From an uncultured Oscillospiraceae bacterium (lineage in GTDB: Bacteria > Bacillota > Clostridia > UMGS1883): a DNA stretch of 64,000 nucleotides. The translations under genes were made by a program, and so were the position numbers. The stretch is from the NCBI GenBank assembly GCA_964385605.1, contig CAYLPQ010000003.1:8203-72202 (forward strand), in the 5' to 3' direction. Shown one piece after another: positions 58,414-62,244 of the stretch (the stretch's first letter is position 1; every line of letters starts with the position of its first letter). The notes below the pieces were generated by a model that was given only the letters and a program-made list of their open reading frames with translations, made no database searches and was not told where the DNA came from.

Positions 58414-58526
58414 CCTTTCGTTACTAAAACACTAACTATACAATTATATCACAAATATTTTTGTAAATCTACAAAAAAATAAACAAAAAATGTAATTAAA
58501 CAGATATTTGTAAAAGAGGTGAGAAA

Positions 58527-58911
58527 ATGAGACGTTATAATATTACTTATGTAAAAGAAACTGTCACAGAGGAGATATGGAATAAGATAATGCCTCTAAA
58601 AATAGATATTTCCCCCTGCGAGGAGTATCCCTGTCCATATAAAACACAGGTGCGGCTTGCATATGACGAAGAAAAGCTGTATGTTTATTTCAAAACGGAC
58701 GAAACAAAGCTTCGTGCAGTGAACTCACAAAGAAATTCCCTTTTCCTTTATAAAAGAGCATTTTAACGATATATCAAAGATAATGCATGCCAATTTTTAT
58801 AAATGCGGAGAAAAAACAGAACCTGAACACTATGGATGCTGGAGTAATATTCCTGAATATCCGTATGATTTTCATACTCCTGAATACTTCGGTGAACTGG
58901 CTTTTAATTAA
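58527..58911 (+). pseudogene. carbohydrate-binding family 9-like protein, internally deleted and frameshifted
   Basis: N-terminal fragment (..VRLAYDEEKLYVYFKTDETKLRAVNSQRNS) stops at 58766. The C-terminal end (HANFYKCGEKTEPEHYGCWSNIPEYPYDFHTPEYFGELAFN*) continues in another frame to 58911. Confidence 0.65.
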
Positions 58912-58991
58912 ACGAAGAAGGGTGAGGACTAACCTAATAATAACAGGAAGAATCAGAAATCTTTCTGTAAAATTCAATTAACGGAAATTCT

Positions 58992-59334
58992 TTAAGGCAA
59001 ATTTAAAAAATCGTCATTAAGTGACCACAAAAGGTATCCGTCAATCCTGGCTCCGTCATCACTTGCCTTTTCAAGCTTATGCAGATAACGTTCAAGAAAG
59101 TCAATTCTGTTGGGGTCATGCCCTTTTCCGTCAAGAGATACAACATCGTGGGCAGACATTCCGTTTTCAGTTATAAAAATCGGAAGTTTAAGTCCGGGGA
59201 ACATGTATGCCCAGTTGATAACTCTGACCGATAAAGCATTGCGGCTCGTTGAAGGTTATAAAATATTTTGCCTTATCTGAATAAAGCTCTGCTATTGCTG
59301 CAGTAAGTGCAGTTGATTCAGCATTGTTCTCCAT
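58992..59334 (-). pseudogene. GH1 beta-glucosidase remnant
   Basis: The acid/base motif segment KYFITFNEPQCFIGQSYQLGIHVP (about 59205-59334) is joined out of frame directly to the nucleophile segment PIFITENGMS (ORF 58992-59204). About 190 aa are missing between them, and both protein ends are absent. Confidence 0.75.
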
Positions 59335-59518
59335 ATGAACGCAAACAGTCTGATTTTTCTTGACGTATAAATTTTTATAAGAAACCCTCCCAATAGTATT
59401 ATTTTTATAATATCACAGCCGGGAGAGTAGTTAAATTTCAACTTTATTGGATTTTATTTAACTGTTTTTGGGAAAGGTGTCAGAAAGAACTCTTTTTCAG
59501 AAGAAATCAAAACATAAG

Positions 59519-59556
59519 AAAAAAACCGCCTAACCCTATTGGTTAAGCGGTTTTTT
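59519..59556. terminator. strong bidirectional terminator
   Basis: A-run, aaccgcctaacc / ggttaagcggtt stem, T-run. Confidence 0.85.
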
Positions 59557-59558
59557 AT

Positions 59559-59577
59559 AGCGTGCTTGGAGGGACGA
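59559..59577 (-). repeat. duplicated tRNA-Arg 3' end (T-stem 3' strand plus acceptor strand)
   Basis: tatagcgtgcttggaggga against tatggcgtgcttggaggga at 59761-59779: 18/19 identical, with CCA changed to CTA. Confidence 0.8.
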
Positions 59578-59724
59578 TGTTGCTGCGCACCATCCCTGCT
59601 AGTCCACCCAAATGCTGACGCATTTGGGTACCGGACGTCGCACCACCGTGCTAAAAACGATTATCAATCGTTTTTTAACGCACGTTGCCCTCACAGGGTT
59701 CGAATCCCTTTTTAATTAAAGCAC

Positions 59725-59758
59725 AAAAAAGGACATCCACGAATGTAGATGTCTTTTC
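59725..59758 (-). terminator. terminator immediately after tRNA-Arg
   Basis: Minus strand: AAAAGACATC TACATTCGTG GATGTCCTTTTTT. Confidence 0.7.
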
Positions 59759-59762
59759 TTTA

Positions 59763-59839
59763 TGGCGTGCTTGGAGGGATTCGAACCCCCGACCCTTTGG
59801 TTCGTAGCCAAATACTCTATCCAACTGAGCTACAAGCAC
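59763..59839 (-). tRNA. tRNA-Arg (anticodon ACG), CCA encoded
   Basis: Minus-strand cloverleaf: GTGCTTG TA GCTC AGTTGGATA GAGT A TTTGG CTACGAA CCAAA GGGTC GGGGG TTCGAAT CCCTC CAAGCAC G CCA. Confidence 0.93.
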
Positions 59840-59930
59840 ACTTCAAACGCAAGTTATATGATAACATACAATTGATAAAAAAGCAAGTATTATTTTTGGA
59901 AAATTTCGTTTTTTTAAATTTTTAAAAAAA

Positions 59931-59981
59931 GGATGTGTCTCAACACAACAAGCTTTGTAATTTGAGGACACATCCTTTTTT
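59931..59981 (-). terminator. terminator after the membrane AraC-type regulator gene
   Basis: ggatgtgtc / gacacatcc stem with a 27-nt loop, flanked by an A-run and a T-run. Confidence 0.65.
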
Positions 59982-59982
59982 G

Positions 59983-62244
59983 TTAATTGTTTTGGTTTGT
60001 AAGAGAAACCTTATATTCTTTTGGTGTCATACCCATATAAGCTTTAAACGCGCGTCTGAAAGAGACATCGCTGTTATAGCCTACCTGTTGTGAGATTTTT
60101 TCAATAGTTATATTTGAGCCGGACAAAAGATTGCAGGCAGCTTCCATACGTACTTTCGTAACATATTCGCTGAACTGATAACCCGTATATTCCTTAAAGA
60201 ATCGCGATGTGTATGCCTCGGAAATATGAAAATGACTTGAAAATGTCTGACGGGAAAGCAACGGGTCGCTGTAATGAGTATCAATATACTGCATCATGAT
60301 AACCGCCATATTTTCCGAAGAGCTGTCGTTTGAAAAGCTGTGTATTTTTGTCAATTGGGACTTTACAAGGTCAAAAAATCCCGGCAGTGTCAGGTCAAAG
60401 CCTTCTGAAAAAGCGGCTTCAGCCTCGGTAATAATTTCCGGGGGAAGATTTAAGTTGTACAGAATTTTAAATACCGTACATCTTATGTTGGAATAAAGGT
60501 GCTTGATTGCCTGTGCTGACAGAACCTTTTTTTCATGATTTTCCTTGAGGACAGTGTCCAGTGTCTCAAAAACTATATCTATGTTTTTGTGCTGGAAGGA
60601 GTAAATAATACGTTTTTCCACATCGGTAGGGTAAAAGTAACCCGTATTTCCCGAAAGTCCCTTCGTGCACCAGACAGCATTGTTATACGTGGTCTGAATA
60701 CCGTATTCCATAATGTTTTTTACATCGCAGTATTTATAGAATGTGTCAAAAAACGAAGTGAAAGGCTCACTGATAGCAAATTTGAGCTTAATGTCAAATT
60801 CTTTGTTGGATTCTTCTGCCAGCTTATTAAGGGTATCCTCGAGAATAAGCACCGTGTCATCTTTATCGTCAACACCTAAAAGAAAAACTGTTTGCTCGTC
60901 ATTAATATAGGTATGGATACACGAATACTGTGACGATAGCTTTTCAGAAAGTGTTGCTTTCAATGAAGTTACTTTTGTCGGAGAGTTACCTCTGCCGGGA
61001 GAAGACATCAGAATGGAAATAATACATATAATGTAATGGCTGGAATCAAGTGAAAGATTAAATTGATTCATGTTCTGCATTATTTCGTCCCTGTCCAAGA
61101 GGTCGCCCGAAAGAATCGAATGCAGGAAGTTAGAACGTAGTATAGGCATACTTTCTTCCAGGATTTTTGTTGAATGCTGGCTTGTGCTTATAAGATTATC
61201 AACCGATTCAGAAATAATGTTCAGTTCGTTGTTTTTGTCGTTTGAAGCCTCCGAATAGGGGCGAAGTGTATTTAATATCCGCTCTATGGGGCGTGTATTG
61301 CGCTTGGTAAAGTAAAGCGCGAGAAATCCGCACACTATAAAGCTGATGAAGAGAGCAAATATTATAATGAAGCGCACCATATTTATGTCGGAAGAAACTA
61401 TACTTGACGGAATTGCCAGAGCATAGTTGTAGGAGTTTGATTCTGTTGTCTGATAGACCGTGTATTCTATCCCATCAATAACTTCGGTGGTTCTTTTCTC
61501 GCTACCGAGGCTTATGTTAGGGGAATTATAGCTCTGTGCAATCGGATTTTTAGAATTATCAAAGAAATAGAAACAACTGTTGGCAGGGAGGTCGTTTTCA
61601 ATTGCTTTAAACAGCTTTTCAGAATCAACACTTATAAGAATCGTTCCTGTAATGTTTTCGGCTTCCTGCACAGGAACGGTTGTAATGAAGTAAAAGCAGT
61701 TTTTATGCGTGCCCTTGGAAATAAAGTCCGTCTGATAGTATAGTCTGTTGTATCCATAGTAAGAAAGAACAGTTGCTTTCAGGGTGTGATAATCCATATC
61801 GCCGATTTTCAGGAAATCGCCGTAACTTGAAGAGGGAATAGCTGTTGTAGTCGAAAGAAAATAATCTCCCGGGTGGGAGTATAGGTAAATATCATCAATA
61901 AGTGGGTTTGAGGATGTGTATGAATTCAGATGTGAAATTATATTGAGCTGTATTGATGGTTGATATGTACTGCTTCCTTTATTAAGTACGTTTGTTGTTA
62001 AAAACGAAGCTGATTCTCTGTTTGACAGAATCTGTGCAGGGATATTGCTGATTCCTTCAAGGTATTGGTTAACAATTTGCTGGGATTGGGAGAGTGCGCT
62101 GTAATACTTCTCCTCGTTGTTGCGGTTAAGGGTCTGAAGCAGATTTGCGTAAAGTATTCCACAGGTAATAATAGGAATAAGCATAATCACCAGATATGTT
62201 AAAATAAAGAATTTAAAAGTAGATAGTTTTACATTTGTTTTCAA
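59983..62244 (-). CDS. membrane-anchored sensor/AraC-family transcriptional regulator
   Basis: 753 aa. Two TM segments flank an extracytoplasmic (Cache-like) domain. C-terminal AraC HTH (ITIEKISQQVGYNSDVSFRRAFKAYMGMTPKEY). Confidence 0.8.
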   Translation of the reverse strand: MKTNVKLSTFKFFILTYLVIMLIPIITCGILYANLLQTLNRNNEEKYYSALSQSQQIVNQYLEGISNIPAQILSNRESASFLTTNVLNKGSSTYQPSIQLNIISHLNSYTSSNPLIDDIYLYSHPGDYFLSTTTAIPSSSYGDFLKIGDMDYHTLKATVLSYYGYNRLYYQTDFISKGTHKNCFYFITTVPVQEAENITGTILISVDSEKLFKAIENDLPANSCFYFFDNSKNPIAQSYNSPNISLGSEKRTTEVIDGIEYTVYQTTESNSYNYALAIPSSIVSSDINMVRFIIIFALFISFIVCGFLALYFTKRNTRPIERILNTLRPYSEASNDKNNELNIISESVDNLISTSQHSTKILEESMPILRSNFLHSILSGDLLDRDEIMQNMNQFNLSLDSSHYIICIISILMSSPGRGNSPTKVTSLKATLSEKLSSQYSCIHTYINDEQTVFLLGVDDKDDTVLILEDTLNKLAEESNKEFDIKLKFAISEPFTSFFDTFYKYCDVKNIMEYGIQTTYNNAVWCTKGLSGNTGYFYPTDVEKRIIYSFQHKNIDIVFETLDTVLKENHEKKVLSAQAIKHLYSNIRCTVFKILYNLNLPPEIITEAEAAFSEGFDLTLPGFFDLVKSQLTKIHSFSNDSSSENMAVIMMQYIDTHYSDPLLSRQTFSSHFHISEAYTSRFFKEYTGYQFSEYVTKVRMEAACNLLSGSNITIEKISQQVGYNSDVSFRRAFKAYMGMTPKEYKVSLTNQNN

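Follow-up and report, generated by a model that had tools for sequence, protein, structure and literature searches.

The window analysed here is a stretch of 64,000 nucleotides from an uncultured Oscillospiraceae bacterium (assembly GCA_964385605.1, contig CAYLPQ010000003.1, positions 8,203 to 72,202), and the element in question is a module of ~155 nt that begins ~55 nt past a tRNA-Arg gene, on the same strand (Table 1). It is a structured, multi-copy unit that resembles the tRNA-linked repeats (TLRs) of Escherichia coli and is fitted to its tRNA; the sense strand is the one that folds, and orthologous sites differ in whether and how they carry the unit. An earlier note on this DNA had drawn attention to a duplicated tRNA 3' end at this position, and had asked whether the enclosed segment is an integration scar or a tRNA-derived small RNA. 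The 19-mer TATGGCGTGCTTGGAGGGA at 59761-59779 does recur ~200 bp downstream with 18 of 19 positions identical (chance matches in shuffled sequences, 0.01), and the change of CCA to CTA is its sole mismatch, as described; the repeat lies at 59556-59574, however, 3 nt to the left of the interval first given for it (59559-59577). The inverted copy of the tRNA T-arm is also exact, the plus strand at 59696-59708 mirroring the minus strand at 59776-59788. Both terminators of the earlier description, one directly behind the tRNA and a strong one after the distal repeat, were recovered on the minus strand, together with the AAAAACGATT/AATCGTTTTT hairpin and the CCCAAATGC-TGAC-GCATTTGGG hairpin at 59607-59628, whose loop reads GTCA on the minus strand. 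A proposed likeness to the dnaN-yaaA element found no support, as BLAST of 59500-59765 against the whole assembly gave no other match in the window.

Table 1. Features of the tRNA-Arg locus in window coordinates, read along the minus strand (G numbers denote genomes of relatives)
Feature	Position	Strand	Basis and content
tRNA-Arg(ACG), CCA encoded	59763-59839	minus	ARAGORN; Rfam tRNA, 67.3 bits; template of the T-arm and 3'-end copies of the element
Terminator T1	59725-59758	minus	terminator scan; 9-bp hairpin (59732-59753) and U-tract, between tRNA and element
A/T-rich spacer including GTGCTTT (59718-59724)	59709-59724	minus	sequence reading
Inverted T-arm	59696-59708	minus	exact reverse complement of GGGTTCGAATCCC of the tRNA; 0.05 in shuffles
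Hairpin P2 (CCCU-GUG-AGGG)	59688-59698	minus	pairs the last part of the inverted T-arm with a directly repeated T-stem 5' strand
Arm P3-P4	59643-59687	minus	outer helix covaries; tip is the near-invariant AAAAACGATT-GAT-AATCGTTTTT hairpin (59653-59676)
Arm P5-P7	59597-59642	minus	UGC/GCA, GUCC/GGAC, then the ACCCAAAUGC-GUCA-GCAUUUGGGU hairpin
Hairpin P8	59575-59596	minus	just before the distal repeat; loop C(GCA)G here
Distal copy of the tRNA 3' end	59556-59574	minus	18/19; shuffle test 0.01
Terminator T2	59520-59556	minus	terminator scan; 16-bp stem CCGCTTAACCAATAGGGTTAGGCGG; recurrent module
Sequence beyond T2 (~50 nt)	59472-59519	minus	shared with the sequence behind T2 at the tRNA-Arg loci of G014 and G023 (BLAST)

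The distal copy comprises the 3' strand of the T-stem, the 3' strand of the acceptor, the discriminator, CUA in place of CCA, and 2 flanking nt. Its start and the 5' part of the inverted T-arm together form a closing helix, P1, in which 5' GGGAU pairs with the AUCCC that opens the 3' repeat. The tip of arm P3-P4 reads AAAAACGAUU-GAU-AAUCGUUUUU in RNA letters. Judging by its sequence, the A/T-rich spacer is probably a decayed extension of the inverted copy into the acceptor strand, and GTGCTT or GCTTG occupies the position equivalent to its GTGCTTT in other tRNA-Arg copies. The ~50 nt beyond T2 may be a remnant of an island arm. The stretch that holds these features folds far better than shuffled sequences on either strand (z of -7.5 and -8.2), and no promoter-like site was found inside the element. 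If the origin of replication is near dnaA (dnaA, gyrB and gyrA lie at ~47-56 kb), the tRNA-Arg gene and the unit are transcribed head-on to replication, and the folding strand of the element would be the leading-strand template at this locus.

A repeat family behind tRNA and tmRNA genes

The enclosed segment is not a private scar but one copy of a repeat family, named type A here. Within the same genome, its core (~59597-59716) recurs behind tRNA-Leu(CAA) with 81% identity and behind tRNA-Gln(CUG) with 89% identity, the latter unit being cut by a contig end; in addition, a decayed unit with a different body follows tRNA-Ser(GGA). The resulting count of at least three copies is a minimum, as this metagenome-assembled genome (MAG) is 84% complete, with 24 tRNAs assembled and some contigs ending inside units. 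The copies within this genome are 81-89% alike, which indicates that there was no recent burst. Among 41 relatives, 29 (three families of the order) carry between one and nine matches each, and a same-strand tRNA ends just upstream in 26 of the 32 copies from relatives, with Arg, Ser, Gln, Lys, Leu, Pro, Met and Ala as the specificities.

An exact 23-mer from the first arm was found in more than 112 contigs of uncultured Clostridia, a lower bound; the copies used here came from among the matches listed. Among these, the contigs are labelled as Oscillospiraceae, Acutalibacteraceae, Christensenella and Eubacteriales, and many come from the guts of goat, sheep, yak, buffalo and deer. A same-strand tRNA precedes 46 of the 71 listed copies that have enough upstream sequence, with 22 anticodon types represented and a typical distance of ~40-60 nt between tRNA and unit. 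The remaining 25 are mostly second units of tandem arrays, or lie behind tRNA-like or tmRNA-like 3' ends. Two type A copies sit behind genuine tmRNA (ssrA) genes (L093, 768-1330, and L138, 3603-4150), and in these both the inverted copy and the 3' copy are fitted to the T-arm and end of the tmRNA. T1 recurs as a constant component: of 70 copies that have a tRNA upstream, 69 show a run of at least four T behind that gene, and in all 70 the 55 nt following the gene have a folding energy of -10.8 kcal/mol or lower (median -21.7).

Whereas other helices covary, the hairpin AAACGATTGATAATCGTTTTTAG (59653-59676) recurs unchanged, as an exact 23-mer, in many Clostridia. It was found in more than 112 MAG contigs (L069-L148) and at a further place in the genome under study (C50:14705-14723), and it is common to other short body types, for example L069, L096, L120 and L143, all four of which start with TGGTGCGGGAAATGTCGC, as well as L080 and L114. 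The invariance of the AAACGATTGATAATCGTTT hairpin suggests sequence-specific recognition, possibly by a protein. In distant copies the tip of P3-P4 is swapped for other stems made of an A-tract, a hairpin and a T-tract.

Several other identities were considered for the segment and set aside. A coding reading of the 58-aa open reading frame at 59539-59715 was rejected, as the alignment contains indels of lengths other than multiples of three, and its changes compensate one another pair by pair. Both ARAGORN and the Rfam tRNA model detect only the genuine tRNA-Arg, so that neither a tmRNA nor a pseudo-tRNA identity could be upheld. In a permissive Rfam search (E<=10) of the region and of the type B units described below, only the tRNA family scored, and no family fits type A or B; a weak match to the trpB motif (32.9 bits against 59) represents merely two hairpins and a terminator. 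Among 2.9 million viral contigs of IMG/VR there was a single match, at a contig end, and on this ground a phage origin was rejected.

Tailored ends and alleles of the tRNA-Arg site

All units share one order, namely T1, the reverse complement of the T-arm of their own tRNA, the multi-helix body, and the last 17-19 nt of their own tRNA. The 3' copy matches the neighbouring tRNA in nearly all units of the relatives. Among the 46 listed copies behind a tRNA, 28 reproduce its last 17 nt perfectly and another 4 do so with one mismatch, and the inverted T-arm departs from its template at no more than 2 of 13 nt in 33. The repeat always starts 1-2 nt ahead of the T-stem 3' strand. The inverted T-arm reads GGGATTCGAACCC in units of tRNA-Arg and tRNA-Ser, GGGAGTCGAACCC in those of tRNA-Leu(CAA), AGGACTTGAACCT in those of tRNA-Pro and tRNA-Leu(CAG), GGGGATCGAACCCC in those of tRNA-Ala and GGGAGTTGAACCC in those of tmRNA, and it tracks even unpaired variants of the T-loop (TTGAA against TCGAA). 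In three units (L018, L023 and L034), the inverted copy runs through the acceptor strand to TGG, giving a full inverted 3' end (TGGTG...). Three alleles of the tRNA-Arg gene (...CTCCAAGCACG, ...CTTCAAGCACG and ...CTTCAAGCACA) occur in different species, each with a matching distal copy, and thus the ends of the unit evolve in concert with the tRNA. Two chimeric units were observed. One (L016, G001:C176) has a tRNA-Arg and an Arg-type inverted T-arm upstream and a tRNA-Leu 3' end; the other (L034, G004:C23) opens on the 5' side with a complete inverted tRNA-Lys 3' end and closes on the 3' side with the 3' end of a tRNA-Arg. Both look like products of recombination between units of different loci.

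Conservation of the tRNA-Arg promoter region throughout the genus allows orthologous sites to be lined up directly. The site is empty in G009, G001, G011, G016, G003 and G006, and filled in this genome, G023, G021, G005 and G007, as well as in G013 with a different body; in each of G014, G007 and G012 a second unit stands in tandem with the first, and the repeated part includes the terminator. In G016, G003 and G006, the tRNA is followed by one terminator and a metY-like gene, and G013 has the same arrangement with "T1' + body B + tRNA 3' end" inserted before the original terminator. In G009, G001 and G011, the tRNA is followed directly by a T2-type terminator and a convergent integrase-like sequence, and in this genome and G023 "T1 + body A + tRNA 3' end" lies between the tRNA and T2. 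The flank behind the distal copy is the flank found behind the tRNA in empty sites, the junction CCA/ccgaaaacc being kept. This comparison of empty, filled and stacked sites indicates that the unit is a discrete insertion/deletion allele, bounded by the tRNA-end repeat and bringing its own terminator.

Exchange between sites is suggested by a tree of 71 bodies from which the tRNA-derived ends had been removed (109 columns); the underlying alignment is short, many forks of the tree are unresolved, and only the starred clades are trustworthy. Isotype labels require at least 40 changes on this tree, against a minimum of 12. Clades that mix isotypes with an SH-aLRT (approximate likelihood ratio test) support of at least 98 combine Leu with Arg (99), and Lys, Asp, Pro and Ser (100). 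Such mixing implies that bodies were exchanged between loci of different tRNAs, either by transposition or by gene conversion. The tree speaks against a single body lineage for each tRNA, as would fit a classical integrase, short though its alignment is and unresolved at many forks.

Terminator T2 has a distribution of its own. The 89 nt past the distal copy, i.e. T2 and the ~50 nt behind it, are 86-87% identical over 83-87 nt to sequences behind tRNA-Arg in G014 (second locus) and G023 (BLAST). T2 itself shares 94% identity with its counterpart in G009 and G001, the hairpin that separates tRNA-Arg from the integrase there, and a T2-type terminator occupies the same place before an integrase-like sequence in G011, in a more diverged copy. 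The integrase at tRNA-Arg is a Pfam-confirmed tyrosine integrase in G009 only, and was recognised by sequence reading in G001 and G011. T2 was also found behind a tRNA-Lys unit in G017, with no integrase nearby, and thus behaves as a promiscuous module. The distal repeat may be a former junction between the tRNA and an island. In the genome under study, a tyrosine integrase of 373 aa (Pfam Phage_integrase) on another contig (C118:1-1584, L004) ends beside a T2-type terminator at the start of this short contig. The place where it is integrated is missing from the assembly. It shares 25% identity with the tRNA-Arg integrase of G009, and it was the only candidate near a T2 hairpin for the matching integrase that the earlier note had proposed to look for; no integrase or attP in the genome could be assigned to the unit.

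Covariation of the body and its folding strand

A consensus structure was derived with RNAalifold from an alignment of 25 copies, and contains 43 pairs, 26 of them with compensatory changes. Besides P1, it consists of P2, two long arms and P8. P2 covaries (alignment pairs 13-16 with 21-24; UA:20, CG:4, AU:1), but covariation in P1 and P2 is trivial because both are tRNA-derived, and the two helices were therefore left out of the test of the body, for which 34 pairs remain. In the body, 96.8% of cells are paired, as compared with 85% in shuffles and 33-45% when partners are slid by 1-3 columns, and double changes are seen at 20 of the 34 pairs, as compared with 8.7 in shuffles and 4-9 for slid partners. 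None of 500 shuffles reached the observed value for pairing or for covariation. For instance, within P5-P7 the pair 83/129 occurs as UA:10, AU:9 and GC:3, and the pair 85/127 as GC:16 and CG:9; in P8 all five pairs covary, and 17 of the 25 aligned copies have a C(GNA)G triloop in this hairpin.

The helices of the body contain G·T in 31 cells and A·C in 3. As G·T is tolerated and A·C hardly so, the folding strand is the tRNA-sense strand, and the body is a selected structure on that strand. This evidence for sense-strand folding holds equally for an RNA and for a single DNA strand.

RNA unit or DNA cassette

The closest known counterparts of the unit are found in E. coli, where TLRs have been known since 1978, most of them without known function or origin; 22 TLRs are distributed over ten loci, and each finishes with 18-19 bp that repeat exactly the 3' end of its upstream tRNA or rRNA (PMC8144298). 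As far as the primary accounts (Egan & Landy 1978, Rudd 1999, Bösl & Kersten 1991) are cited in PMC8144298, the members include RtT/RttR behind tyrT-tyrV (RF00391) and RrA, RrB and RrF behind 5S rRNA. The latter three lie between terminators T1 and T2, are produced by read-through of T1 and are apparently processed at the repeat, which has been proposed as a processing signal; the only activity reported for TLRs is the binding of Hfq and CsrA by RrA/B/F in vitro, and an early claim of a role for RtT in the stringent response was later withdrawn (PMC8144298). A full-text literature search returned no description of such elements outside the E. coli TLRs.

The type A units share with TLRs that they are non-coding units of ~100-180 nt directly behind tRNA or rRNA genes, on the same strand, at several loci and sometimes in tandem. 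The unit in the window lies immediately downstream of tRNA-Arg on the same strand, and its last 18-19 nt correspond to the 3' end of the upstream gene (18/19). In E. coli MG1655, the RtT units behind tyrT and tyrV begin with GGGGAAGGAT, the inverse of the T-stem and acceptor of tRNA-Tyr, and end with AATCCTTCCCCCACCACCA; these two form a 10-bp closing helix in the folded unit, which also contains C(GCA)G hairpins just before the repeat. The type A unit likewise starts with an inverted copy taken from its tRNA that leads to a closing helix, has such a hairpin (P8) ahead of the repeat and, in common with RrA/B/F, is placed between two terminators. The differences are the Clostridial host, the other body of type A, the terminator between tRNA and unit in type A that tyrV-RtT does not have, and the inverted copy of type A, which extends over the T-arm in full, its loop included.

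A second family that trails tRNA genes, named type B, is built on the same plan, in the order T1, inverted T-arm, body, GGGTAGAATCCC, acceptor and CCA, with a body that differs from that of type A. Its members are L041, L042, L046, L050, L054, L056 and L058, along with a copy in the genome under study (C26:28640-28800, L007). A possible likeness of type B to E. coli RtT consists of short shared words (TCGAGC, GAGCG, GAAGCG and GCGCAG). In three relatives, a pseudo-tRNA-Arg lies just after the tRNA promoter and upstream of the real tRNA-Arg (L056 in G012, rc 1290-1500; L058 in G020, rc 1310-1500; L063 in G014, rc 1300-1500). It keeps the 5' two-thirds of the tRNA, with an altered D-loop (CCCCAT, CCCCT and CTCCCT in G012, G020 and G014, respectively), and has no acceptor 3' strand; its T-loop is replaced by a type B body of ~150 nt (GGGGG/AACCGAGCC...GGGTAG/AATCCC). 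The body therefore also occurs as a leader, inserted exactly in the T-loop. Elsewhere in the genome under study, a tRNA-Met without encoded CCA (C75:355-432) is followed 252 nt downstream by an exact 15-nt copy of its 3' end, with no clear inverted T-arm, and this may represent another kind of tRNA-end repeat.

The reading favoured here, with limited confidence, is that the unit is probably the Clostridial counterpart of the E. coli TLRs, expressed when transcription runs through T1, with the transcript then cut back at the duplicated tRNA end to a stable RNA. Some transcripts from the tRNA promoter would pass T1, as in E. coli RtT and RrB; the duplicated tRNA 3' end would serve as a second signal for 3' processing; and the product would be a stable, folded RNA of ~150-190 nt with a tRNA-like end. 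At the DNA level, the direct repeats formed by tRNA end and terminator could cause loss, tandem duplication and exchange of units, and a templated process, for instance gene conversion, or template switching at the palindromes of T-arm and terminator, may keep the ends identical to the neighbouring tRNA. The small RNA that the earlier note had offered as its second possibility would agree with what is known of the closest relatives, the TLR/RtT RNAs of E. coli.

Several points weigh against this reading. The likeness to RtT is one of layout, without detectable homology in sequence or structure: the Rfam RtT model RF00391 gave no match at E<=10 in window positions 58500-60500 or in a type B unit, and none at E<=1 in the whole assembly, with a positive E. 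coli control. RNA from the unit may be rare, because a strong terminator precedes it and a terminator-like succession of A-tract, hairpin and U-tract lies inside it. G·U is scarce among the pairs, at 31 cells out of 845, and a single pair contributes 14 of these; such rarity suits a DNA strand folded on itself no less than it suits an RNA. Most hairpin loops are triloops, and C(GNA)G is the typical form. Loops of the d(GCGAAGC) type make DNA mini-hairpins of extraordinary stability. In structured RNAs, GNRA and UNCG tetraloops are preferred, and C(GNA)G triloops would be unusual as the dominant loop; together with the rarity of G·U, these triloops lean toward DNA. Finally, RNA function alone fails to explain why an unpaired complement of the T-loop tracks the neighbouring tRNA.

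It is possible, if rather doubtful, that the unit is instead a mobile or recombining cassette at the DNA level, which would fold as single-stranded DNA on the sense strand, with the T-arm hairpin of tRNA and tmRNA genes as its point of entry and exit. Its enzyme would be supplied in trans, and could be a tyrosine recombinase working on folded DNA, as with integron attC sites and CTX-phage, or a hairpin-nicking HUH enzyme; the ends would be re-copied from the target, and any RNA would be a by-product. This rival and the RNA reading are not mutually exclusive. The states of the orthologous sites, with boundaries precise at the tRNA-end repeat, are in line with such a cassette, as are the bodies that changed tRNA isotype with both ends re-tailored, the terminator that each unit brings along, the chimeric copies, and the related type B body seated exactly in the T-loop of a pseudo-tRNA-Arg in three genomes. 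The folded strand also rebuilds the 3'-end duplex of the tRNA gene from the inverted and direct copies (columns 3-7 with 163-170), and the repeat starts 1-2 nt inside the T-loop, the sublocation where one class of integrases reportedly crosses over (Williams 2002). The frequent C(GNA)G triloops and rare G·T pairs fit as well. However, no enzyme was identified, the degree of likeness among within-genome copies shows no recent burst of the kind seen in miniature inverted-repeat transposable elements (MITEs) or insertion sequences, and viral contigs contributed the single match already mentioned. A crossover in the T-loop would bring the acceptor strand of the previous host into the new tRNA, and this was not seen. 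In addition, the long-term covariation across families suggests retention by selection, and the exchange of bodies between loci is equally explicable by gene conversion.

Known repeats of the REP/BIME/REPIN kind and MITEs are likewise protein-less, hairpin-rich, intergenic and multi-copy, with terminal inverted complementarity and a mosaic or stacked arrangement. Type A differs from them in lying strictly behind tRNA and tmRNA genes in a single orientation, in having a multi-helix body with extensive covariation, and in having ends copied from the neighbouring gene rather than fixed transposase-binding repeats. Its terminal sequences vary with the neighbouring tRNA, and the moderate identity of within-genome copies likewise does not fit a MITE or REP.

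That the two copies of the tRNA end represent attL and attR, left by an island with its own integrase that has shrunk by deletion to 185 bp, is improbable, and for the enclosed segment this reading is largely refuted. Like integrase att sites in tRNA genes, the unit repeats the tRNA 3' end directly from a point in the T-loop onward, leaves the tRNA intact and also occurs at tmRNA, and relatives have tyrosine-integrase islands at the same tRNA-Arg. In favour of the island reading, T2 and the ~50 nt follow the distal copy, a T2-type hairpin stands beside integrase-like sequence in G009, G001 and G011 (with Pfam support in G009), and T2 is next to the integrase of C118 in the genome itself. Unlike the contents of integrase att sites, however, the ~185 bp between the repeats are non-coding, structured and multi-copy, with no conserved open reading frame and no integrase in or next to the unit; the integrases at the tRNA-Arg of relatives lie outside the unit. 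The same type A body is found behind at least 22 kinds of tRNA and also behind tmRNA, fitted to each with matched ends and an extra inverted T-arm copy, and is under structural selection. T2 also stands behind the tRNA-Lys unit, where an integrase is absent from the vicinity; the C118 integrase bears only a distant similarity to that of G009; and the existence of both G009 (island, no unit) and G023 (unit and T2) implies that island and unit are separable. The integration scar suspected earlier fails as a lone integrase scar, the segment being a conserved, covarying module behind many tRNAs and tmRNA. What stands of it is that the same tRNA-Arg site is empty, filled or stacked among relatives, and that the distal repeat leads into T2 and ~50 nt, with a T2-type terminator adjoining integrase-like sequence in three relatives.

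A neutral remnant of a tandem tRNA-Arg duplicate, decaying in place, is very improbable: the 3' end is tRNA-derived, the GTGCTTT after T1 resembles a tRNA 5' end, and pseudo-tRNA-Arg copies do lie upstream of tRNA-Arg in G012, G020 and G014, but ARAGORN and the Rfam tRNA model find a cloverleaf only in the genuine tRNA-Arg and none in the segment, the body is common to units behind unrelated tRNAs, and covariation at 20 of 34 body pairs is not a product of neutral decay.

A wider and more speculative proposal, unlikely on present evidence, would unite type A, type B and E. coli RtT as one pan-bacterial class of protein-less cassettes that sit on the T-arm hairpin of tRNA and tmRNA genes, fold single-stranded, rebuild the 3' end of the gene from one inverted and one direct segment, employ this copy to move or be copied between tRNA genes, and re-template their ends on every new host gene.

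TLRs have so far been treated as an enterobacterial curiosity, and the same unusual layout is now seen in distant, uncultured Clostridia of gut and rumen. The structural covariation and the ends fitted to each tRNA or tmRNA suggest that this layout is a general, selected solution rather than an accident. A consensus structure, natural empty and filled alleles of one site, isotype exchange and chimeric copies are now at hand, and the resulting choice, whether the unit acts as RNA or as folded DNA, is open to testing. In practical terms, MAG assemblies break at tRNA genes because of these units, which also pass for att scars when islands are predicted and have no entry in Rfam. If the pan-bacterial proposal were true, the units would be a new mobile element that tailors itself under the guidance of structure, or a new tRNA-coupled RNA system, and would account for a class of repeats that has been unexplained since 1978.

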